Origin: an uncultured Caulobacter sp.
GTDB taxonomy: Bacteria; Pseudomonadota; Alphaproteobacteria; Caulobacterales; Caulobacteraceae
DNA: 64,000 nt
NCBI GenBank assembly: GCA_966252285.1
Contig: CBINOL010000009.1
Coordinates: 743 to 64,742 of the forward strand
Direction: 5' to 3'
Shown here: positions 5,857 through 18,740 of the stretch, piece after piece
Numbering within the stretch: the first letter of the stretch is position 1
Layout: each line of letters begins with the position of its first letter
Translations under genes and position numbers: made by a program
The notes under the pieces: generated by a model
What the model was told of the DNA's origin: nothing
The model's database searches: none
Seen by the model: the letters and a program-made list of their open reading frames with translations, nothing else

Positions 5857-6783
5857 TCAGCAGGCGGCCGAAGCGCCTTCGCGCACCGTGTCGATGAAGG
5901 CGCGCAGGGCTGGGCTCATCTGGCGTTGCTGCGGGAAGCACAGGTGATGGCCTGGGAAGGGTTCGCACCAGGTCTCTAACATCGCCACGAGCCGGCCGTC
6001 GGCGATGGCCTGGCGGGCGGTGCGTTCGACGGAGAAGGCGATGCCGACACCGTCGATGGCTGCCTGCAGCGCCATGTGCTTGCTGTTCACGATCAGCGGG
6101 CCGGCGACCTCGACCTCGAACCAGGCGCCGTCCTCGTAGAACTCCCAGCGATAGGGCTGAGCGCGGCCCGGCCAACGCCAGCGGATGCAGTCATGGCCCA
6201 GGAGGTCGCGCGGATGGGCAGGCGTACCGCGCTCGGCGATGTAGCTGGGGGCGGCGACCGGGATTTGCCGCACCGGCGGCTCCAGCGGCACGGCGACCAT
6301 GTCGCGCTCGATCACCTCGCCGAGGCGGATGGCCGCGTCATAGCCGGCCGCGACGGTGTCGACCACTTCGTCGTCGACCGTGACGTCCAGCACCACGTTG
6401 GGATAGGCGCGTCGGAAGGCCGGCAGGATCGGCTGGATGTAGAGCTCGGCGGCCGACCGAAAGGTGTGGACCCGAACGGCGCCGGAAGGACGCTCCTGGT
6501 AGAGGCGAGCCTGACCGACGGCCTGGCTGAGTTCGGCCACGGCCGGGGCGACGCGGCGCAGCAGGTTCTCACCGGCTTCGGTCAGGGAGACGCTGCGGGT
6601 GGTGCGGTTCAGCAGCCGAACGCCGATCCGCTCCTCGAAGGTCCGCACGACTTGGCTTAGCGCCGAGGGCGTCACGCCCAGCGTCTCGGCAGCGCGGGTG
6701 AAGCTCAGGGCCTGGCCTACAGCGACGAAGGCCCGCAGGTGGGCGAAGTCGCCGCCGCTGAGCATGGGGTCGGTCAAGGTCAT
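5857..6783 (-). CDS. LysR-family transcriptional regulator
   Basis: HTH SFTRAAETLGVTPSALSQ...LLNRTTRSVSLTEAG; divergent from an SDR. Confidence 0.95.
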   Translation of the reverse strand: MTLTDPMLSGGDFAHLRAFVAVGQALSFTRAAETLGVTPSALSQVVRTFEERIGVRLLNRTTRSVSLTEAGENLLRRVAPAVAELSQAVGQARLYQERPSGAVRVHTFRSAAELYIQPILPAFRRAYPNVVLDVTVDDEVVDTVAAGYDAAIRLGEVIERDMVAVPLEPPVRQIPVAAPSYIAERGTPAHPRDLLGHDCIRWRWPGRAQPYRWEFYEDGAWFEVEVAGPLIVNSKHMALQAAIDGVGIAFSVERTARQAIADGRLVAMLETWCEPFPGHHLCFPQQRQMSPALRAFIDTVREGASAAC

Positions 6784-7771: not shown

Positions 7772-8986
7772 TCAGCCCTTATAGAGATCCGCGTCTGGAT
7801 CCTGCTTGCCGCGTACCTCCGTCGATACGATTTCGGCGGCGATGGCGGAGTAGGTGATGCCGTTGCCGCCGAACCCCATGACGGCCCAGGTGTGGTCCAT
7901 GCCCTCCACAGGGCCGATGCTGGGCAGGCCGGTGGCGCTGGAGCCGAACGCGCCCGCCCAGACGTAGTCGATGGCGAAATCGACATCGGGCAAGAGGCGC
8001 TGGAGCTTGGCGGTCAGGATGGCGCTTTTACGCTCCAGTTTCTTCGGATCCTCATGTGCGGCGGCGTCGGACTCGTCCTCGCCGCCGGCGATGATCCGGC
8101 CTTCGCGGTCCATGCGCAGATAGAGGTACGGATCGGACGCCTCCCAGACGAGCGTATCGGCCAGCCAGGTCGGGCGGCGCCTGCCGGACTTGGAGGCCAG
8201 TGCCCAGGTCGACACGACGCTGGCGCCCGGCGTCGGCACACCCTTCGGAAATTCGTAGCCGCAGCAGAACACGACGTGCTTGGCGCGCACCGCATGGCCG
8301 GTGTCCGTCAGCAGGGTCACGCCGTCGGGATCGCTGATGGCCTGGGTCACCTCGACCGGCGACCATATCCTGGCGCCGCGAGCGTGGGCGCGCCGCAGGA
8401 GGCCCGCCGCCAGGCGCGCCGGATCGCCGGCCGCCGCCCCGGTCGAAAGGATCGCGCCGGTTCGATCCAGGCCGAAGCGATCGCCAAGCTCGGCCTTGCC
8501 CAAATAGCGGCTGTCGAGGCCGATCTGCGCTCGGGCTTGGGCTTCCGCATCGAGAGCGCGCGAGCCATAGGCTTCGCCGGCGAGATAGAGCGAGGATTTC
8601 GGGCGAAGGCCGCAGCCGATCCGCTCTTCGGCTACGATCCGGCGCAGGTCCTCCACGGCCCTGTACGATCGCAGATAGGCTCGCCTGGCCTTGGCAGCGC
8701 CAATCCTGTCGCTCAACGCCGTCAACGGGAGATCTATCTCCCATTGCAGCAGGGCGGTCGAGGCCATGGTCGAGCCAGTCAGGGGAGGGCGGCGGTCGAG
8801 CACGGCGACCGAATGATCCTTCGACAGTTCGTGGGCCATGAACGCGCCGCTGATCCCGGCCCCCACGATGGTGACGTCGACGCTTATCGCCTGGATCAGA
8901 GGGCGCGTCGGCACGCCGAGGCCATGGCTGTCGGCCCACAGCGATCTTCCGGTTCTTAGGTCACGTTTCCTGGTCGCGCCGGTCAT
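7772..8986 (-). CDS. FAD-dependent oxidoreductase (DAO/glycine-oxidase-like)
   Basis: IVGAGISG dinucleotide fold, GSTMASTALL, MGFGGNGITYS; start taken at MTGATRKRDL within a longer ORF call. Confidence 0.88.
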   Translation of the reverse strand: MTGATRKRDLRTGRSLWADSHGLGVPTRPLIQAISVDVTIVGAGISGAFMAHELSKDHSVAVLDRRPPLTGSTMASTALLQWEIDLPLTALSDRIGAAKARRAYLRSYRAVEDLRRIVAEERIGCGLRPKSSLYLAGEAYGSRALDAEAQARAQIGLDSRYLGKAELGDRFGLDRTGAILSTGAAAGDPARLAAGLLRRAHARGARIWSPVEVTQAISDPDGVTLLTDTGHAVRAKHVVFCCGYEFPKGVPTPGASVVSTWALASKSGRRRPTWLADTLVWEASDPYLYLRMDREGRIIAGGEDESDAAAHEDPKKLERKSAILTAKLQRLLPDVDFAIDYVWAGAFGSSATGLPSIGPVEGMDHTWAVMGFGGNGITYSAIAAEIVSTEVRGKQDPDADLYKG

Positions 8987-9009
8987 GGGCCCTCCGCCTG
9001 AGCGAGGCA

Positions 9010-9035
9010 AAGTCCCGGGAGCAGGGCGAGGTTCC
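9010..9035 (-). promoter_or_regulatory. Weak candidate sigmaT/EcfG-type promoter GGAAC-N17-ACTT
   Basis: Motif just upstream of the oxidoreductase start; -10 element is a poor match. Confidence 0.35.
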
Positions 9036-9060
9036 GCGTCGATCGCGGCGGGCGCAAAAT

Positions 9061-9852
9061 TCAACCAACCCTGTCGATCCGGAAGCTCTGCTCGACCAGT
9101 TGCGCCTCCCCGAAGATCGTCATGAAGGCGATGTCGGCGGCGTCGCGGCCGGACGCCACGCGAACGAGCCCACTGATCGGCGCCTTGCCGGTAGCGTCGA
9201 TCAGGCGCCATCGCCCGCCCAGATAGACCTCGGCGACCGCGTGCAGGTCCGGCGGCTCCAGGCCCCAGGCATAGGCGCTGACCGCTCTGGCCGGAATATC
9301 GGCGGCGCGGCACAGCGCGATGAGGAGATGACTGAAGTCGCGACAGACGCCGGCGCGGTCGATGAAGGTCTCCACCGCCGTCGTCGCGCTGTGGCTGACG
9401 CCGGCCTGGTAATCGATGTTGGCGGCGATCCAGTCGAGGATCGCCATGACCCGCCGTCCGCCTGACAAAGCGCCGAACTGGCGATCGGCGAACCGCTCCA
9501 GGCGGTCGGAGGGGCTGTAACGGCTGGCGCGCAGGAAGGGCAGCACCTGCGCCGGCAAATCGCGGATCGCCACGGCGGGCGCGTCTTCAAGCTCGTGATC
9601 CCGTGGCGTAACCTCGATCTGGGCCCGGTAAGTCACGCTAACCCGGCCCGCGGCGGTGAAGACCGTCCTGCGTTCCTGGGTCGCTGGATCATCGACGCCC
9701 ACGGCGTCGATGTTCGGTGAGAACGTCAGGGTCTCGGATCGAACCGACTGGTCCGGTCCACGAGCGGCTTCGACCAGAAGAAGCACCTCGCAGGGGTCGG
9801 CGAAATCGTAGGTCAGCGAGGCTTCGACGTCGAACGTGAACGGTTGGGTCAT
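9061..9852 (-). CDS. Transglutaminase-like family protein
   Basis: GVCRDFSHL (Cys), DLHAVAEVY (His), WRLIDAT (Asp) triad; start taken at MTQPFTF. Confidence 0.9.
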   Translation of the reverse strand: MTQPFTFDVEASLTYDFADPCEVLLLVEAARGPDQSVRSETLTFSPNIDAVGVDDPATQERRTVFTAAGRVSVTYRAQIEVTPRDHELEDAPAVAIRDLPAQVLPFLRASRYSPSDRLERFADRQFGALSGGRRVMAILDWIAANIDYQAGVSHSATTAVETFIDRAGVCRDFSHLLIALCRAADIPARAVSAYAWGLEPPDLHAVAEVYLGGRWRLIDATGKAPISGLVRVASGRDAADIAFMTIFGEAQLVEQSFRIDRVG

Positions 9853-9940
9853 CGGACTTCGCCGCCGGCTCGGATCTCGTGGTCCGCATTCATTGCTGTC
9901 GCCCTCCTGCGACAGCACGCCCGGCCGTCGGCCAACTGCA

Positions 9941-10031: not shown

Positions 10032-10337
10032 TTAATAGCGCCAGAGGAACGGCGCCGATTGCCAGATGATGGCGATGGCGGCGAGGGTCGAAGCCAGGGC
10101 TGACAGGCGCGGGACGAACACTCCGCCGAGGCGGGGGCGTCGCGAGGCGCGCCAAGCGCGAACGGCCAGGGCGACTGCGGCCAGGACGCAGGCGAGCGTC
10201 ATGCCCGCGAAAAGCCGGGTCAGCGGCGCCTGGTGCTCGTACGGGGATATGTCGGCCAGACTGGCGATCGCATAGGCGGCCAGGAAATGCGCCGCCCAGA
10301 GCAGAAGACCGCCAAGCAGGGAAAGCCAGATGTTCAC
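10032..10337 (-). CDS. Small membrane protein at the end of the oxidase operon
   Basis: GTG start overlapping the coxA stop; three hydrophobic segments. Confidence 0.7.
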   Translation of the reverse strand: MNIWLSLLGGLLLWAAHFLAAYAIASLADISPYEHQAPLTRLFAGMTLACVLAAVALAVRAWRASRRPRLGGVFVPRLSALASTLAAIAIIWQSAPFLWRY

Positions 10338-12877
10338 GTAAGGCCTGCCGGGAAGAGGCGGGTGACGCCGAGCCCGACGAGGCCCTGGCCGGCGGTGTAG
10401 GCCAGGAACAGGCCGACCAGTTCGATTGTCGCGGGCCTGTCCGGGCCGACATAGCCGTAGAGCCGTCGCAGCAGCACATAGAGCGCCATGATCGCCGCGA
10501 CGGCGACGAAGAAGCCCTGCCAGGCCAGGATGGCGTGGACGATCGCGCCCTGGGCGCTGGCCTGGGGCGACAGCCCGGTCAAGCGCCAGGACGACAGGTC
10601 GACGCCGAAGGCCAGCGCCAGCAGGGCGCCCCCGACCAGGACCATGGCGGTGGCCAGCCACGGACGCGCGAGCTGGCGTCTGGCCAGCAGGGCCAGGGCG
10701 CCGCCGGCCGCCGCCGATAGGGTCGCAATGACCAGCGAGGCGGTGTCGGGCGGCGGTCGCCAGGCGTCAGGATTGCGGCTCCACAGGAAGACGTAGGAGA
10801 ACACCGACATGGCCAGCACCATGCCGCCGACGACCAGGGTCACGACCATGGCCCACCAGCCGGTGCTCGACGGTCCGCTGGCGTAGGTCGGCAGCTCGAT
10901 TCCGGCGCCGACGTCGACCGTCTGCTGCGGCAGAGGATGGTCGAGGAACCAGCACCAGCGCAGCACGCAGAGGATGGCCAGAACACCGCTCAGCACCGAG
11001 GCGGCGTAGGCCTGCACGGTCAGCAGCAGAAAGAAGCCGGCGGTGAACACCGCCGCCCAGACATGCCAGCCCGAGGGGACGGGCATTCGCAGCAGATGCT
11101 GCGGCTCGGCGTTGACCGGGCTGGTCACCAGGGTCTCGCGGCCGCCGGTGGGCGCGCCGGGCAGGAAATAGCGTCCGGCGGCGACGTCGCGGGCGAGGTT
11201 CTTCTGGTCCCAGAGTGGATAGAGCGACGTCACCACCGGGATGCTGCGGGTGGAGTAGAGCCCCGCCGGCAGCCATTCCAGTCCGCCGCCCTCGTAGACG
11301 TTGCCCGCCTCGCTGGCGCCGAACGGGCGAAAATTGCGGACCATGTCGATCACCCAGATCAGCACGCCGGCGGCGAAGACGAAGGCGCCAATGCTGGAGA
11401 TGAGGTTCGGCCACTCCCAGTCGCGGCCGGCGGCATAGGTGTAGACGCGCCTGGGCATGCCCATCAGGCCGGTCAGGTGCATGGGCAGGAAGGCCAAGTG
11501 CATGCCGGCGAACATCAGCCAGAACGTCCAGCGGCCCAGCCGCTCGCTCAAGGGGCGGGCCGAAACCATCGGCGTCCAGTAGTAAATCGCCGCGAACAGC
11601 GGAAAGACCATCCCGCCGATCAGCACGTAGTGCAGGTGGGCGACGATGAAGTAGGTGTCGTGGGCCTGCCAGTCGAAGGGGACCATGGCCGCCATCACGC
11701 CCGTCAGCCCGCCCATGACGAAGATCAGCAGCGAGCCCAGCACGAAGAGCCCCGGCGCGTTGAACTTCATCCGGCCCGAGGCGACCGTGGCGATCCAGGA
11801 AAAGACCTGCACGCCCGCCGGCAAGCTGACGGCCATCGAAGCGGCCGAGAACATCCCGACCGACACGCCCGGCAGGCCGGTGGTGAACATATGGTGGGCC
11901 CAGACCCCGAAACTGATGAAGCCCGTGGCCAGGAAGGCCAGCACCACCAGCCAGTGACCGATCAGCGGCGTGCGCGCCACGGCCGGCACGATGGTCGACA
12001 TCGCGCCCGCCGCCGGCAGGAAGATGATGTAGACCTCGGGGTGGCCGAAGAACCAGAAGAGGTGCTGCCACAGCATCGGGTCGCCGCCGCGCGCGGCGTC
12101 GAAGAACGGCCAGCCCAGGGCGCGCTCCAGCTCCAGCAGGGTGGTGGCCAGGATCACCGACGGGAAGGCGATGATGATCATGCCGGCGAACACCAGCATG
12201 GCCCAGGCGAACACCGGCAGCTTGTCCAGCGTCATGCCGGGCGCGCGGGTCTTGAGCACGCCGACGATGATCTCGATGGCCCCGGCGATGGCCGAGATCT
12301 CGATGAAGCCTATGCCCAGCAGCCAGAAGTCGGCGTTGATGCCCGGCGAATAGGTGGTCGAGGTCAGCGGCGGATACATGAACCAGCCGCCGTTCGGCGC
12401 CAGGCCGAAGAACAGCGAGCAGAAGAAGGCCAGACCGCCGATCAGATAGGCCCAGAAGGCGTAGGCCGACAGGCGCGGAAAGGGCAGGTCGCGCGCGCCC
12501 AGCATCTGCGGCAGCAGCAGCACCCCCAGCGCCTCGACCGCCGGCACCGCGAACAGGAACATCATCACCGTGCCATGCATGGTGAAGATCTGGTTGTAGG
12601 TTTCCTGCGCCAGCACGCCCTGCATCGGCAGCGCCAGCTGCGTGCGCATCAGGAGCGCCAGCACCCCGGCCAGCACGAAGAACAGCATGGCCGCGCCGAC
12701 GTAGTAGACGCCGACATAGTTGTTGTTGATGACGGTGATCCACTCCCACCGCCGGGGCGCGCACCAGATCGCCTCCAACTGCTCAAGCTCGCCCTTCGGC
12801 CGCCGTCCCTTGGTCGGAAAGCGCTCGTAGAGGGCGGTGTCGAAGCCGGTCTCCGACGGCGTGGGAGGTCCGCTCAC
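10334..12877 (-). CDS. ctaD: Heme-copper oxidase subunit I (A-family, GHPEVY) fused to a C-terminal subunit III-like region; proton-channel residues atypical
   Basis: Metal ligands intact (HGTVMMF, GHPEVY, WAHHM, HDTY, AHLHY, MPRR); 847 aa with extra C-terminal TM helices. Confidence 0.95.
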   Translation of the reverse strand: MSGPPTPSETGFDTALYERFPTKGRRPKGELEQLEAIWCAPRRWEWITVINNNYVGVYYVGAAMLFFVLAGVLALLMRTQLALPMQGVLAQETYNQIFTMHGTVMMFLFAVPAVEALGVLLLPQMLGARDLPFPRLSAYAFWAYLIGGLAFFCSLFFGLAPNGGWFMYPPLTSTTYSPGINADFWLLGIGFIEISAIAGAIEIIVGVLKTRAPGMTLDKLPVFAWAMLVFAGMIIIAFPSVILATTLLELERALGWPFFDAARGGDPMLWQHLFWFFGHPEVYIIFLPAAGAMSTIVPAVARTPLIGHWLVVLAFLATGFISFGVWAHHMFTTGLPGVSVGMFSAASMAVSLPAGVQVFSWIATVASGRMKFNAPGLFVLGSLLIFVMGGLTGVMAAMVPFDWQAHDTYFIVAHLHYVLIGGMVFPLFAAIYYWTPMVSARPLSERLGRWTFWLMFAGMHLAFLPMHLTGLMGMPRRVYTYAAGRDWEWPNLISSIGAFVFAAGVLIWVIDMVRNFRPFGASEAGNVYEGGGLEWLPAGLYSTRSIPVVTSLYPLWDQKNLARDVAAGRYFLPGAPTGGRETLVTSPVNAEPQHLLRMPVPSGWHVWAAVFTAGFFLLLTVQAYAASVLSGVLAILCVLRWCWFLDHPLPQQTVDVGAGIELPTYASGPSSTGWWAMVVTLVVGGMVLAMSVFSYVFLWSRNPDAWRPPPDTASLVIATLSAAAGGALALLARRQLARPWLATAMVLVGGALLALAFGVDLSSWRLTGLSPQASAQGAIVHAILAWQGFFVAVAAIMALYVLLRRLYGYVGPDRPATIELVGLFLAYTAGQGLVGLGVTRLFPAGLT

Positions 12878-13839
12878 TTCAGGCTCTCCAGGTAGGCGGA
12901 GACGTCGCGCAGTTCCTTCCCCGTCAGTACTGGATAGGCCGGCATCCGGTTGCCGGGCTTGATCGCCTGGCTGTCGCCGATCCAGCCGGCCAGGGTTCCC
13001 TGGTTGTTGGGCAGGACGCCGGCGCCCAGGGTGCGGCGGGAGCCGACATGGGTCAGGTCCGGGCCCGCCAGGCCGTTGGCGTCGGTTCCCCGAATGGCGT
13101 GGCAGGCGCCGCAGCCGGCGCGGTCAAACACCGCCTTGCCGGCGGCATGGGCCGGCGAAGCGACGGCAGGCGTGGCTTGGCTGGCTCTCCAGACCTCGTA
13201 GTCCGCCGGCGCGTGGGCGACTACGATCAGGGCCATCAGGGCGTGCGGGCCGCCGCAGAACTCAGCGCACTGGGCGCCGTACTCGCCGGGCTGGTCAGCC
13301 TGGATGCGCAGGATGTTGCGGCGGCCAGGGATCATGTCGAGCTTGCCGTTCAGCCGCGGGATCCAGAGGCTATGGATGACGTCCGTCGACTCCAGTTCCA
13401 GCGCCACGGGCCGACCGGCGGGGATATGGATCTCGTTGGCGTCCTGGAAGGCCTCGCGGCCGGCCGCGTCGAGATAGCCGACCCGCCACCACCACATCTC
13501 GCCGGTGACGCGAACGCGCAGTTCTCCGGGGCGGGGCGGCTCGCTGAGGCGATGGGTCAGCGAAAGGCCCCAGATCAGCAGGGCGCTCAACACCACGACG
13601 GGAAAGGCGATCCCGGCGATCCAGACGAGACGCTCGCCGCCCACGCGCTTGCGCCAGGCCCGTGGTGCGAAGAGCGCGAGGGCCAAGGCGATGACCACGA
13701 TCGCCAGCACGGCGGCGGTCATGGCCAGCAGGCCCCAGGTCAGGCTGTTCAACGGCGCGGCGAACGGTCCGGCTGGATCCAGCGCCGGCGGCGGCCAGCC
13801 CTTCAGGCTCTCGTGAGCGGGCGGCGCGTCAGTCTGCAT
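12874..13839 (-). CDS. ctaC: Cytochrome c oxidase subunit II with C-terminal cytochrome c (caa3-like)
   Basis: CuA ligands DVIHSLW and CAEFCGGPHALM; heme c CGACH; start taken at MQTDAPP. Confidence 0.93.
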   Translation of the reverse strand: MQTDAPPAHESLKGWPPPALDPAGPFAAPLNSLTWGLLAMTAAVLAIVVIALALALFAPRAWRKRVGGERLVWIAGIAFPVVVLSALLIWGLSLTHRLSEPPRPGELRVRVTGEMWWWRVGYLDAAGREAFQDANEIHIPAGRPVALELESTDVIHSLWIPRLNGKLDMIPGRRNILRIQADQPGEYGAQCAEFCGGPHALMALIVVAHAPADYEVWRASQATPAVASPAHAAGKAVFDRAGCGACHAIRGTDANGLAGPDLTHVGSRRTLGAGVLPNNQGTLAGWIGDSQAIKPGNRMPAYPVLTGKELRDVSAYLESLK

Positions 13840-14218
13840 CGAGCGAATAGAGATAGGCCGCAACGTCGCGGGCTTGTTCTTCCGTCAGGCCAGAGGCGGG
13901 CATGGCGGTGTCTGGAGCCATGGCCGGCGCATCTCGAAGCCAGGCGACCATGACGTCCGGACGGTTGGGGTAGCGCCCGGCGATCATCGCCTGGGCCTGC
14001 AGGTTGTCCAGCGACCCGCCGACCGCGCCGCGTGGCCACTGTACGCCGGGAATATGATGGCACGCGCCGCAACCCTCGGCTTCAATCAGTCGCAGGCCTT
14101 CGGTGGGATTGGCGCCTGACATCTGGTGTGAGGAAACGGCTTTGTCCGCGCAGGCGACCAGCGTCGCGCCGGCCAGGCCGATCATCGCCGCGCTCGCTGT
14201 CCTGGTTCCACCGATCAC
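13829..14218 (-). CDS. Mono-heme c-type cytochrome, probable lipoprotein
   Basis: CGACH, distal Met in DTAMP, LVAC lipobox-like; GTG at 14218 preferred over TTG at 14248, which overlaps the promoter motif. Confidence 0.85.
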   Translation of the reverse strand: MIGGTRTASAAMIGLAGATLVACADKAVSSHQMSGANPTEGLRLIEAEGCGACHHIPGVQWPRGAVGGSLDNLQAQAMIAGRYPNRPDVMVAWLRDAPAMAPDTAMPASGLTEEQARDVAAYLYSLDAD

Positions 14219-14246: not shown

Positions 14247-14279
14247 AACCCGTCGGAACGGTCGCGGTTCCGCAGGGTT
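14247..14279. promoter_or_regulatory. Interlocked divergent sigmaT/EcfG-type promoters, GGAAC-N16-GGTT on each strand
   Basis: Plus strand: GGAAC 14255-59, GGTT 14276-79. Minus strand: GGAAC 14271-67, GGTT 14250-47. Confidence 0.6.
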
Positions 14280-14287
14280 TACGCCAA

Positions 14288-15022
14288 GTGCGCAGCTCCG
14301 CCTTCTTCCTTGCCGTTGCCCTCGCCGCGCTCAGCGCCTGCGACCGCGCGCCGCCCCGGACCGACGCCCTGCTGAGCGTCGACGGGCGGACCATCGCCAT
14401 GAGCGGCGGCGCCGGCGGAGCAGCTCATGCCTGCTTCTCCTGCCACGGCCTCGACGGCATGGGCGACGGCGTATCGGTCCCCCGCCTGGCCGGTCTCGAC
14501 GCCGGCTATCTGCAGAAGCAGATGGAGGACTACGCCTCGGGCATCCGGCCCGACAAGGTGATGGGGCCGGTCGCCAAGCCGCTCGACGACAGGGCTCGCC
14601 GCGCCGTTGCGATCTACTATTCAAGCCTGCCGACGGCGAGCGGCGGCATATCCGGCGGACCGCCGCCAGCGCTCTGGACGAAAGGCGACCCAATGCGTGG
14701 TCTCGCGCCCTGCGCCGCCTGCCATGGAACTGAGGGCCAAGGCGTCGGCGCGGGCCAGCCGGCCGTGGCCGAGCAACCCGCGGCCTATACCGTCGAACAG
14801 TTTAGTCGCTGGAGGCGCGCGGTGCGCCGCAACGATCCTCGCGGGGTGATGACCATGATCGCGAGCAGGCTCAGCGAGGCCGAAGTCGCCGCCTTAGCGG
14901 GCTGGCTAGAGACGCGACCCTCTTCTCCAGCGCCCGCCAGCGGCGCTGCCAGCGCGTCCGCCGTCGAGGCCGCTGCGGCAGGATCGGCAGCATCCCGTGA
15001 AGGACGTCGTCGCGATCGATGA
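14288..15022 (+). CDS. Di-heme cytochrome c4/c553-like lipoprotein
   Basis: CFSCH and CAACH, PRLAG..YL.KQ..DY motif, LSAC lipobox. Confidence 0.9.
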   Translation: MRSSAFFLAVALAALSACDRAPPRTDALLSVDGRTIAMSGGAGGAAHACFSCHGLDGMGDGVSVPRLAGLDAGYLQKQMEDYASGIRPDKVMGPVAKPLDDRARRAVAIYYSSLPTASGGISGGPPPALWTKGDPMRGLAPCAACHGTEGQGVGAGQPAVAEQPAAYTVEQFSRWRRAVRRNDPRGVMTMIASRLSEAEVAALAGWLETRPSSPAPASGAASASAVEAAAAGSAASREGRRRDR

Positions 15023-16300: not shown

Positions 16301-18649
16301 TCAGCCTTTCGGCAGGGCGTAGGCGATCAGGTAGTCGCCCTCGGGCGTCTCCATGAAGTGATGCCCGCCGGCCATGATCACCACGTACTGGCGGCCGTCC
16401 TGCTCATAGACCATCGGATTGGCCTGGCCGCCGGCCGGCAGCACGTCGCTCCACACGGTCTTGCCGGTCTCGATGTCGATGGCGCGGAAGAGGTTGTCGG
16501 TCGCCGCGGCGATGAAGACCAGGCCGCCAGCCGTCACCGCCGAGCCGCCGTTGTTTGGCGTGCCGATGTCGACCGGCAGCATCGAGGGTATGCCGAAGGG
16601 GCCGTTGCGCCGCGCCGTGCCGAACGGACGATCCCAGAGGGTGGCGCCGCTCTTCAGGTCGATGGCGCGGATGCCGCCGTAGGGCGGGCGCTTGCACAGC
16701 ATGCCCGTGCCCGGCATCCGCCAGCCGGCGTTGACATCGATGGCGTACGGAACGCCTGTCTGCGGATCGCCCGCGCCCTCGGCCCCGCCGGCCTTGGTCT
16801 TTTCGCGCGGATCGCCGCGCGGGAACCAGCCCTTGGCGTCCGCCACGGCGCGCGGCACCAGCTGGTTGTAGTTGGGCATGTCGTTGTAGTTGGCGACGAT
16901 CACGCCACGGCGCGGGTCCAGCGCGATCCCGCCCCAGTCCGAGCCGCCGTTGTAGCCGGGATACTGGATCCAGCGGGCCTTGGCTTCGGGCGGGGTGTAG
17001 GGGCCGTTGTAGATCGCGCGCTTGAACTGGATGCGGCAGATCATCTGGTCGATCGGCGACATGCCCCACATGTCCTTCTCGGTCAGACGGGGCTTGGCCA
17101 GGCTGTGATAGAGCGAGAACGGCTGGGTCTTGGCTCGCTCGGCCGGCTCGACACCGCCGCCGGGAACGGCGCGCTCCTCGACACCCGTCAGCGGTCGGCC
17201 GGTGCGCCGGTCGAGGATGTAGATCTCGCCCTGCTTGCTGGGCAGGATGATCGCCGGCACGCGGCCGCCCGCCGTGGGGAAGTCGACCAGCGTGCCCTGC
17301 GAGCCCAGGTCGTAGTCCCAGACGTCGTTGTGGGCGGTCTGGAACTTCCAGCGCGGCTTGCCGGTGGCCACGTCCAGGGCGACAAGGGCCGAGGACCATT
17401 CCTTCTCCGCCGGACGGCGCAGCGAGCTGTAGTAGTCGGCGGCCGAATTGCCCATGGGCAGGTAGACGAGGCCCAGGGCGTCGTCGCCGGTGGCGGTGGT
17501 CCACATATTCGGCGTGCCGGGCGTGTAGGTGCGGCCCTGAGGCGGCAGACCTGTGATGTCGGGCGCCATCATGTCCCAGGCAAAGCGCATCTGGCCGGTG
17601 ACGGCGTCATAGCCCTGGATGACGCCCGACGGCGCCCAGCGCTTCTGGCCGTCCAGCACCTGGTGGCCGGTGACGATGATCCCGCGCACGATGGTCGGCG
17701 CAGACGTGATCGACACCATGCCGGGCACGACTTGGCCCATGCCGATCTTGATGTCGACCTGGCCGCCCTGGCCAAAGTCCGCGCAGGGCTTTCCGTTGCG
17801 GGCGTCGACGGCGATCAGCCGGCCGTCCAGCGTGCCCTCGATGATCCGAGCGGCGCAGGCGGCGTCGGGCGCGGCGCCAGGTTGGACGAAGTAAGTCACG
17901 CCCCGGCAGGCGGCGGTGTAGGGGATGGCGTCTTTCGAGACCTTCGGGTCGTAGGCCCAACGCTGCTTGCCGTCGCGGGCATCCAGCGCGAACAGCTTGT
18001 TCATCGCCGAGCACAGATAGACGCTGTCGCCGATCTTCAGCGGGGTGGTCTCGGCGCCGAACTTCTCGGGCAGGTCGCCGGTGCGGAAGGTCCAGACGCG
18101 CTCCAGCTTGCCGACATTGGCCTTGGTGATCTGGGCGGCGGCCGAGAAGCGCTGGGCGTCGTGCGAGCCGCCATAGGCGATCCAGTCGGCGCCCATGGCA
18201 GCGCCGGGTCCGGCGAGCGCCGCAGGCAGCGGGTTGGCCGGCGTTGGCCGATTGTCCATCGCGACGATCGCGCCGCCTACGCCTACCAGCAGGACGAACG
18301 CGGCGAGACCGGCCAGCATCGGCTTGCTTCCCCGTCGCGTCAGCACCGGCAGCGACAGCACGACCAGCAGCAGGATCACCAGCGGCGCGACGAGACGCGG
18401 CACGAGCGCCCAGCCGTCGAGCCCCGTCTCCCAGAGCGCCCAGACCAGGGTCAGCGCAAAGACGACGACATAAACGACCACGCCTGCCGGCTTCAGCCTG
18501 GCGATCAGCACGCCGGCGATCAGCAGGCCAAGCCCGGCCAGGACGTAGTAGGGCGACCCGCCCAGGACGGCGAGCCAGGCGCCGCCGACGCCCAGCACCA
18601 GACCGATCACAACCAGGAGAGCGCCCAGCAGGCGAACCAATACCGACAT
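16301..18649 (-). CDS. Membrane-bound PQQ-dependent dehydrogenase (glucose/quinate/shikimate family)
   Basis: N-terminal TM helices, then ETTPLK, CRGV, W.FQTAH.D.WDYD and PAGGQANPM motifs. Confidence 0.95.
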   Translation of the reverse strand: MSVLVRLLGALLVVIGLVLGVGGAWLAVLGGSPYYVLAGLGLLIAGVLIARLKPAGVVVYVVVFALTLVWALWETGLDGWALVPRLVAPLVILLLVVLSLPVLTRRGSKPMLAGLAAFVLLVGVGGAIVAMDNRPTPANPLPAALAGPGAAMGADWIAYGGSHDAQRFSAAAQITKANVGKLERVWTFRTGDLPEKFGAETTPLKIGDSVYLCSAMNKLFALDARDGKQRWAYDPKVSKDAIPYTAACRGVTYFVQPGAAPDAACAARIIEGTLDGRLIAVDARNGKPCADFGQGGQVDIKIGMGQVVPGMVSITSAPTIVRGIIVTGHQVLDGQKRWAPSGVIQGYDAVTGQMRFAWDMMAPDITGLPPQGRTYTPGTPNMWTTATGDDALGLVYLPMGNSAADYYSSLRRPAEKEWSSALVALDVATGKPRWKFQTAHNDVWDYDLGSQGTLVDFPTAGGRVPAIILPSKQGEIYILDRRTGRPLTGVEERAVPGGGVEPAERAKTQPFSLYHSLAKPRLTEKDMWGMSPIDQMICRIQFKRAIYNGPYTPPEAKARWIQYPGYNGGSDWGGIALDPRRGVIVANYNDMPNYNQLVPRAVADAKGWFPRGDPREKTKAGGAEGAGDPQTGVPYAIDVNAGWRMPGTGMLCKRPPYGGIRAIDLKSGATLWDRPFGTARRNGPFGIPSMLPVDIGTPNNGGSAVTAGGLVFIAAATDNLFRAIDIETGKTVWSDVLPAGGQANPMVYEQDGRQYVVIMAGGHHFMETPEGDYLIAYALPKG

Positions 18650-18677
18650 CGAACTCTCCACCAACGCTTGGTGCGAC

Positions 18678-18740
18678 AACACCGGCGGGCGAGGGGGCGT
18701 TCCGTGGCGAGGCTCTGAACCTCGCGGCGCGTGGCGTGTT
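18678..18740. promoter_or_regulatory. Divergent pair of sigmaT/EcfG-type promoter motifs
   Basis: Minus strand GGAAC-N17-TGTT (18703-18678) faces the PQQ dehydrogenase; plus strand TGAAC-N16-TGTT (18716-18740) ends 8 nt before the 18749 ATG. Confidence 0.55.

Follow-up and report, generated by a model that had tools for sequence, protein, structure and literature searches.

How does a heme-copper oxidase obtain its protons when key residues of both proton channels of its family have been replaced? The question is raised by a gene in a 64,000-nucleotide stretch of DNA (the window) from an uncultured Caulobacter sp. (GenBank assembly GCA_966252285.1, contig CBINOL010000009.1, positions 743 to 64,742). 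This gene, coxI+III, encodes an A-family oxidase in which subunit I is fused to a subunit III-like domain. A preliminary description had reported that the product lacks the K-channel lysine and all three D-channel asparagines, and had offered three options for it: a non-pumping electron or O2 sink, a membrane peroxide reductase, or an enzyme with a rerouted proton path. The analyses presented here establish that the channel changes are the signature of a clade under strong purifying selection, not lesions. They favor the last of the three options. We suggest, with a probability of roughly 0.6, that coxI+III is part of a working accessory caa3-like O2 reductase that would take all of its protons through a carboxylate-lined D-type route.

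Residues of the proton channels

Residues were mapped by phmmer alignments to PDB chains, with Rhodobacter sphaeroides numbering for the reference positions, and by a MAFFT alignment of coxI+III with 150 cluster representatives and the subunits I of the canonical aa3 and bo3-type oxidases of the same genome. The two approaches agree on a single residue mapping. Representative pairs in the phmmer alignments are 'slpagvqvfsw' with 'sIPTGVKIFNW', 'gardlpfprlSay' with 'GARDVAFPYLNnl', and 'gaiEii' with 'tgiNfm'; the canonical aa3 of the same genome reads GNDN / N..HEY..HH..TK in the MAFFT alignment. The features concerned are:

10334..12877 (-), coxI+III fusion, 847 amino acids; subunit I core at about residues 46-540 with 12 transmembrane helices, followed by a C-terminal subunit III-like domain with 7
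11807..11809 (-), codon of Q357; K362 position of the K channel, helix VIII; Gln in 150/150 clade members
11816..11818 (-), codon of A354; T359 position; T, S or A across the clade
12029..12043 (-), HPEVY; H279 (CuB ligand), E281 (equivalent to E286) and the cross-link tyrosine Y283 (equivalent to Y288), all retained
12272..12274 (-), codon of E202; N207 position in the D-channel neck, helix IV; Glu in 150/150
12299..12301 (-), codon of E193; G198 position beside S197, helix IV; Glu in 150/150
12467..12523 (-), stretch with V119 (N121 position), D130 (entry Asp D132, kept) and S137 (N139 position), as placed by the alignments
12533..12535 (-), codon of E115; G117 position, helix II, one turn above N121; Glu in 150/150

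In the K channel, K362 is replaced by Gln and T359 by Ala, as the preliminary description had read them by eye. The K362 position is occupied by Lys in 51/51 canonical representatives. The loss extends to the partner subunit: the K-channel entry Glu of subunit II ('LEIxWT') is present in 34/34 partners of Lys-bearing subunits I and in 0/31 partners of Gln-bearing ones, where its position is taken by I, L, W or V (W at this locus). With Q357, A354 and no subunit II Glu, this locus does not encode a canonical K channel, and the K pathway has lost both of its ionizable residues clade-wide.

The D channel is equally altered. Its entry Asp is kept (D130, codon 12488-90), and the asparagine triad N121/N139/N207 reads V119 (12521-23), S137 (12467-69) and E202, again matching the earlier reading. 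The extra Glu noted there in the motif VEALG is E115. All three D-channel serines are also replaced (S142 by A140, S197 by I192 and S201 by A196), so that the canonical pattern survives only at the entry Asp, with V/S/E in place of the asparagines and A/I/A in place of the serines. A further glutamate, E193, occupies a position that is Gly in 45/49 canonical sequences. A search for clade-specific conserved residues returned E115, E193, E202, E249 and Q357 as the only polar positions of this kind, and found no compensating clade-specific Lys, Arg or His. E193, the serine losses, the loss of the subunit II Glu and the lack of a compensating basic residue go beyond the preliminary description, every codon coordinate of which proved correct. 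With no Lys at K362 and no conserved D-channel Asn in the multiple alignment, its residue mapping stands.

Oxygen chemistry and class of the enzyme

The metal ligands and catalytic residues that the preliminary description listed as retained are indeed present in the alignments. The six invariant heme-copper histidines (H101, H416, H414, H279, H328 and H329) are found in 149-150 of 150 clade sequences, the cross-link tyrosine Y283 of GHPEVY in 150/150, and E281, the helix VI Glu in xGHPEV that marks the A1 subtype, in 149/150. The Mg ligands H406/D407 and the arginines R476/R477 are also present in the MAFFT alignment. As judged from its sequence, the full four-electron machinery for O2 reduction is retained. 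The cross-link tyrosine is kept in O2 reductases and missing in NO reductases (PMC11214002), and its retention places coxI+III among the former. A nitric oxide reductase was rejected because both the cross-link tyrosine and the CuB ligands are present, and the new glutamates of helices II and IV sit apart from the binuclear center. A quinol oxidase of the bo3 or aa3-600 type was rejected because subunit II carries the CuA set of Cys, His and Met ligands. Since subunit II bears CuA and heme c, the enzyme is a cytochrome c oxidase. The elements of a caa3-type architecture are all encoded: CuA and a fused heme c in subunit II, the I+III fusion, and a Caa3_CtaG protein.

The 847-residue product matches Pfam COX1 with 476 bits over residues 55-500, and scores 656.5 bits against the TIGR02891 CtaD/CoxA equivalog, slightly below the curated cut-off of 670.75. 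A Pfam search of the C-terminal 311 amino acids gave no match to COX3; PF00510 matches are recorded for some relatives. Despite the missing Pfam match, the C-terminal domain can be assigned a subunit III fold, because Foldseek aligns it with the fused I+III subunit of Thermus thermophilus (2YEV; see below). The predicted function of coxI+III is that of the intact catalytic subunit of a working accessory caa3-like cytochrome c:O2 oxidoreductase. The same genome also encodes canonical aa3, bo3-type and bd oxidases, which makes the enzyme an extra, accessory one; ccoN of a cbb3 oxidase was not found in the source assembly (98.9% complete). In that assembly the subunit I genes of the canonical aa3 and the bo3-type oxidase are each split over contig ends (C221 with C84, and C156 with C259). 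In database records the clade proteins appear as "cytochrome c oxidase subunit I", or often as "cbb3-type cytochrome c oxidase subunit I" or "cytochrome ubiquinol oxidase subunit I"; neither of the last two names is correct for an A-type enzyme partnered with a CuA/heme c subunit.

A conserved clade with a glutamate triad and Gln362

So consistent a residue pattern is far from what chance would produce: homologs of at least 70% identity all carry E115, E202 and Q357 (121/121), and the same three residues together with E193 are invariant in 150/150 homologs spanning 43-93% identity. A tree of 74 full-length representatives groups these proteins in a single clade, apart from all sequences that carry the canonical N/N/N/K residues. 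We term this the EEE-Q clade; it is a distinct, ancient, horizontally scattered and monophyletic branch of the A-family heme-copper oxidases. Among 94 loci drawn from genome records and from the genomes of relatives, the glutamate triad and Gln362 nearly always appear together, and the triad was never found with Lys362. The exceptions among Gln362 proteins are Ser at the N207 position in L014 and L016, Asn at the same position in L045, and Leu at the G117 position in L040. Loci L014-L016 and L041-L043 encode unfused clade members (about 640 amino acids) in which the entry Asp D132 is Asn or Ser, with E115, E193 and Q357 kept.

The nearest ortholog, in a C. endophyticus record (L018, 93% amino acid identity), gives a ratio of nonsynonymous to synonymous substitution rates (dN/dS) of 0.052 for the subunit I core and 0.095 overall.

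Members of the clade occur in Caulobacter, Brevundimonas, Sphingopyxis, Martelella, Aurantimonas, Skermanella, Azospirillum, Paracoccus and Agrobacterium, in the Pseudomonas mendocina group and the Oxalobacteraceae, and in Planctomycetes, Gemmatimonadota, Rhodothermales, Acidobacteria, Rokubacteria and Chloroflexia. Within the Caulobacteraceae their presence is sporadic: of 121 genomes, about 4 have a close ortholog and about 8 a full-length relative, which fits the horizontal spread of an accessory module.

Two groups of related sequences depart from this pattern. Three representatives nested within the EEE-Q clade (P0146, P0151 and P0181) have lost CuB ligands and the cross-link tyrosine (for example H284 to A, E286 to P and H333 to A), and by their sequences are probably degenerate pseudo-oxidases. 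A sister clade (P0139, P0155 and P0218; L017, L038, L044, L049, L073 and L076) has HPWVY, carries S, A or G at K362, and keeps the D-channel asparagines.

Structure model and proposed proton route

An AlphaFold2 model of coxI+III, built with the 150-sequence alignment, has a mean predicted local distance difference test score (pLDDT) of 90.3 and a predicted template modeling score (pTM) of 0.92, and displays 19 transmembrane helices in the canonical 12+7 topology. Its top Foldseek match is the I+III subunit of the Thermus thermophilus caa3 oxidase (2yev_A; E 7e-37, TM-score 0.82/0.89 over 824 columns). The model places E115 in helix II, both E193 and E202 in helix IV, E281 in helix VI, Q357 in helix VIII and D130 in the II-III loop. 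Counting 1.5 A per residue inward from the helix ends on the N side gives estimated depths of about 10 A for E202, about 16 A for E115, about 24 A for E193 and about 30 A for E281, with D130 at the surface. The channel-lining N207 is replaced by E202, E115 is on the N121 face, and E193 neighbors S197.

We propose that electrons would pass from periplasmic c-type cytochromes to heme c, CuA, heme a and the heme a3-CuB center, and that a single D-type route would supply all protons. In place of the Asn/Ser-water wire of canonical enzymes, this route would be a ladder of carboxylates in steps of about 6-8 A, from D130 at the entry through E202, E115 and E193 to E281. The K route would no longer be used, because both of its ionizable residues have been lost across the clade, much as the B-family oxidases manage with one channel. 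An enzyme of this kind may represent a third solution to proton supply, in which one channel of five carboxylates serves both half-cycles without a K pathway, with altered or no pumping and conceivably with another coupling ion; we hold this broader suggestion tentatively, at somewhat below even odds.

By analogy with canonical enzymes, pumping might amount to 0-0.5 H+/e-, below the 1 H+/e- of aa3, because one added carboxylate, at N139 or N207, is enough to stop pumping there. The substitutions N139D/N131D/N99D and N207D/N199D in R. sphaeroides, Paracoccus denitrificans and yeast yield enzymes that do not pump at approximately normal or higher turnover, and the double mutant D132N/N139D pumps again (PMC7196763). 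Reduced or absent pumping is plausible for coxI+III, not predictable, and would suit an electron or O2 sink under stress or in stationary phase.

Comparison with known oxidases

Like this locus, the caa3 oxidase of T. thermophilus combines a I+III fusion and a subunit II-cytochrome c fusion with an additional small membrane subunit. Its identity to coxI+III is only 30%, and it does not have the three extra glutamates. The Thermus enzyme is of the A2 type, with a YS motif in place of the helix VI Glu and the K-channel Lys kept. The A1-type aa3 oxidases of R. sphaeroides and P. denitrificans (1M56, 1QLE) and of the source genome itself have in common with coxI+III the HPEVY motif, the metal ligands, D132, CuA and R481/R482. 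They differ in carrying N121/N139/N207, S142/S197/S201, T359/K362 and the subunit II Glu, where the locus described here has V/S/E, A/I/A, A/Q and W, with E115 and E193 in addition. The best PDB sequence match (414 bits) is to the Bacillus caa3/aa3-600 group (6KOC), whose copper-insertion factor is of the same type (PF09678). Both proton channels are canonical in the Bacillus enzymes, and aa3-600 is a quinol oxidase without CuA.

The K-channel Lys is likewise missing from other A-family O2 reductases and from the B-family ba3 oxidase. B-family ba3 works with one proton channel. In these K-less enzymes the Lys is replaced by a hydrophobic residue or Thr, the D channel is either normal or wholly absent, and none combines the E117/E198/E207 triad with Gln at K362. 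The natural K-less A-family enzymes that have been catalogued are the Acidithiobacillus rus-operon aa3, those of Sulfobacillus and Thioclava, and the CyoCAB type (PMC8239418, supplementary table).

The preliminary description had mentioned a bioinformatic grouping of PQQ-linked, I+III-fused oxidases (PQQ, pyrroloquinoline quinone). The grouping exists: "subtype a COX13 fused" of Degli Esposti et al. 2021 (Table S1; PMC8239418) comprises proteobacterial COX1-COX3 fusions on a long branch with Caa3_CtaG, and is probably the same group as the EEE-Q clade. Its K channel is scored "yes" in that study and the group was excluded from further analysis; the K-channel variant table there has no K-to-Q entry and does not mention the glutamates. 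The link to PQQ is a local one, as described below.

Gene neighborhood and partner subunits

The genes around coxI+III are:

10032..10337 (-), small membrane open reading frame (ORF), 101 amino acids, probably three transmembrane helices; its GTG start overlaps the coxI+III stop
12874..13863 (-), coxII-cytochrome c fusion; Pfam COX2 and Cytochrom_C, TIGR02866 149.6 bits
13829..14248 (-), monoheme cytochrome c directly upstream of coxII; Pfam Cytochrom_C; kept in close orthologous loci
14288..15022 (+), divergent diheme cytochrome c; Pfam Cytochrom_C in two stretches; kept in L018 and L021
14871..15581 (-), membrane protein of the cytochrome b561 family; the gene sits between ctaG and those for cytochrome c; Pfam Ni_hydr_CYTB 98 bits
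15578..16297 (-), Caa3-type CtaG copper-insertion factor; Pfam PF09678, 106 bits; adjoins the oxidase in most clade loci
16301..18682 (-), membrane-bound PQQ dehydrogenase of the glucose/quinate/shikimate family, directly upstream of ctaG; TIGR03074 937.7 bits
20242-22467, HPII catalase katE, about 7.4 kb from the oxidase

The coxII product has the CuA ligands H..CAEFCGGPHALM and a C-terminal heme c motif, CGACH; its true start is probably the ATG at 13839. The GTG start of coxI+III overlaps the coxII stop. The 101-residue ORF and two of its counterparts matched no Pfam family. A counterpart occupies the same position in distant relatives, and the ORF may be a subunit IV-like component. The monoheme cytochrome c is the likely electron donor. 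Skermanella and Pseudomonas, at 48-51% identity, show the same order of coxII-c, coxI+III, small ORF and Caa3_CtaG. All four genes also occur in C. endophyticus, where ctaG lies upstream, and in most of the other clade loci.

The PQQ dehydrogenase belongs to the quinone-reducing membrane glucose/quinate family. It adjoins a clade oxidase only here and at L008, in a congeneric genome, and is thus part of the local context, not of the conserved module. A looser association with PQQ dehydrogenases is seen for the unfused relatives and for the HPWVY sister clade, where such a gene lies about 4 kb upstream at 3 of 6 loci (L038, L073 and L076). Downstream of the oxidase, window positions 7772-9861 (-) and 5857-6783 (-) encode a transglutaminase-like protein, a DAO-family FAD (flavin adenine dinucleotide) oxidoreductase and a LysR regulator; these genes are not conserved beside the oxidase elsewhere, although LysR and DAO genes also lie nearby at the Pseudomonas locus L020. 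In three Caulobacteraceae genomes (loci L011-L013 in G109, G081 and G099) the clade members are 43-46% identical and their subunit II partners have no heme c domain. At L011 other residues stand in place of the subunit II CuA cysteines (SAEFSGPGYDHF), a sign that electrons may come from a different donor.

Promoters

The preliminary description took the position of the oxidase beside a catalase, under stress-type promoters, as fitting its proposals. Neither part of that argument is supported for this window. The katE gene lies some 7.4 kb away, and no catalase was found near the oxidase within the flanks covered at the 94 other loci examined; catalase linkage was accordingly rejected as a conserved feature. 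The window was also searched for the EcfG/sigmaT motif (GGAAC-N16-17-CGTT), and no exact match was found, against 1.8 expected. Two near-matches, both at chance frequency, are a perfect palindrome at 14247-14279 and GGAAC-N17-TGTT at 18678-18703. The palindrome, GGAACCGCGACCGTTCC, lies between the divergent cytochrome c genes and amounts to two overlapping near-EcfG motifs (GGAAC-N16-GGTT); it could equally be a regulator binding site, and is a candidate only.

At other loci exact motifs do occur. In L018, L021 and L032 they end 10-25 bp upstream of the gene that opens the ctaG unit, or a unit of ctaG with a short-chain dehydrogenase/reductase (SDR) gene; a fourth, upstream of coxII in L030, is ambiguous. 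With a density of 12 motifs per 287 kb on both strands, only about 0.1 would be expected in such upstream windows. Because the exact motifs exceed this expectation, the clade cluster is likely, to judge from these promoter sequences, to belong to the general stress regulon in some alphaproteobacteria. We found no entry for a clade oxidase in the published papers on general-stress regulons that were consulted.

Alternative explanations

Several observations weigh against a working O2 reductase fed by one carboxylate route. Substitutions of K362 inactivate canonical enzymes, so that supply of protons by the D route alone for the reductive half-cycle would require a further change. The placement of the three glutamates along one continuous pathway is a matter of helix periodicity and estimated depth, with N121, S197 and N207 as references, and E193 lies about 60 degrees off the S197/S201/N207 face. 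In the unfused members the replacement of D132 by Asn or Ser suggests that the proton entry point may differ within the clade. Any pumping stoichiometry would be pure extrapolation from canonical point mutants. The EcfG-type motifs of the window itself are near-consensus only and no more frequent than chance. Finally, we found no purification, assay, structure or genetic study of any clade member in full-text literature searches, in keeping with the preliminary description, which knew of no biochemical characterization.

The most serious alternative is a fully uncoupled oxidase, serving as an O2 or electron sink and conserving energy only by the charge separation of chemical protons. An acid at N207 or N139 abolishes pumping at normal turnover (PMC7196763), and coxI+III has Glu at N207 plus two more glutamates; an accessory role beside aa3, bo3-type and bd oxidases and the EcfG-type promoters at orthologous loci would also suit a sink. 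Yet what a point mutation does to a canonical enzyme may not apply to a channel that has co-evolved, as the renewed pumping of D132N/N139D illustrates, and the strict conservation of the five-carboxylate arrangement across phyla suggests a tuned function over mere loss. We consider complete uncoupling unlikely, if well worth keeping in view. A membrane cytochrome c peroxidase, reducing H2O2 instead of O2, is highly unlikely, and this part of the preliminary description has fared poorly. It has a precedent in K362M enzymes, which lose oxidase turnover and keep peroxidase activity, and katE is 7.4 kb away in the window. But the catalase linkage is not conserved in the flanks covered at the other 94 loci, the features of O2 chemistry (the three CuB histidines, the cross-link tyrosine, E286 and the Mg site) are invariant, the subunit I core is under strong purifying selection, and H2O2 reduction would likewise require protons.

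More improbable still is a channel in which Na+ or some other cation takes the place of H+, or one that is coupled to cation exchange. Three buried glutamates with Gln and Ser as potential ligand-type residues, and the marine or halophilic origin of many members, could be read in this way; however, genera from freshwater and soil (Caulobacter, Brevundimonas, Skermanella and Pseudomonas) have clade members just as commonly, the counterpart of E286 and the proton-loading region as a whole (R476/R477 and the Mg site) are canonical, and no antiporter was found in the Caulobacter, Skermanella and Pseudomonas loci examined. Least likely of all is a decaying or non-functional paralog with drifted channel residues. 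A score just under the CtaD equivalog cut-off, the sporadic occurrence in Caulobacteraceae, and the few representatives without CuB ligands (P0146, P0151 and P0181) might point to decay, but the unusual residues are invariant in 150/150 homologs and the operon is intact, with overlapping start and stop codons and its own CtaG. A pseudogene was rejected on the dN/dS values of 0.05-0.1.

Implications for the A-family oxidases

Current views of gating and pumping in cytochrome oxidase are built for the most part on point mutants, such as K362M, N139D, N207D and E286Q, from a small set of A1 enzymes. In the EEE-Q clade nature has fixed the "lethal" change at K362 together with the "uncoupling" change of N207 to an acid and two more buried glutamates, and this combination has been kept under strong selection in hundreds of species from several phyla. 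The clade is widespread, no biochemical work on its members was found in the literature searches, and the replacement of K362 by Gln with the glutamate triad is unlisted in PMC8239418. It thus offers a natural test of whether the K pathway is dispensable in an A-type scaffold, and of whether a carboxylate relay supports or abolishes pumping. Annotation and bioenergetic modeling are affected as well, for the genes of this clade are assumed to conserve energy as aa3 does.

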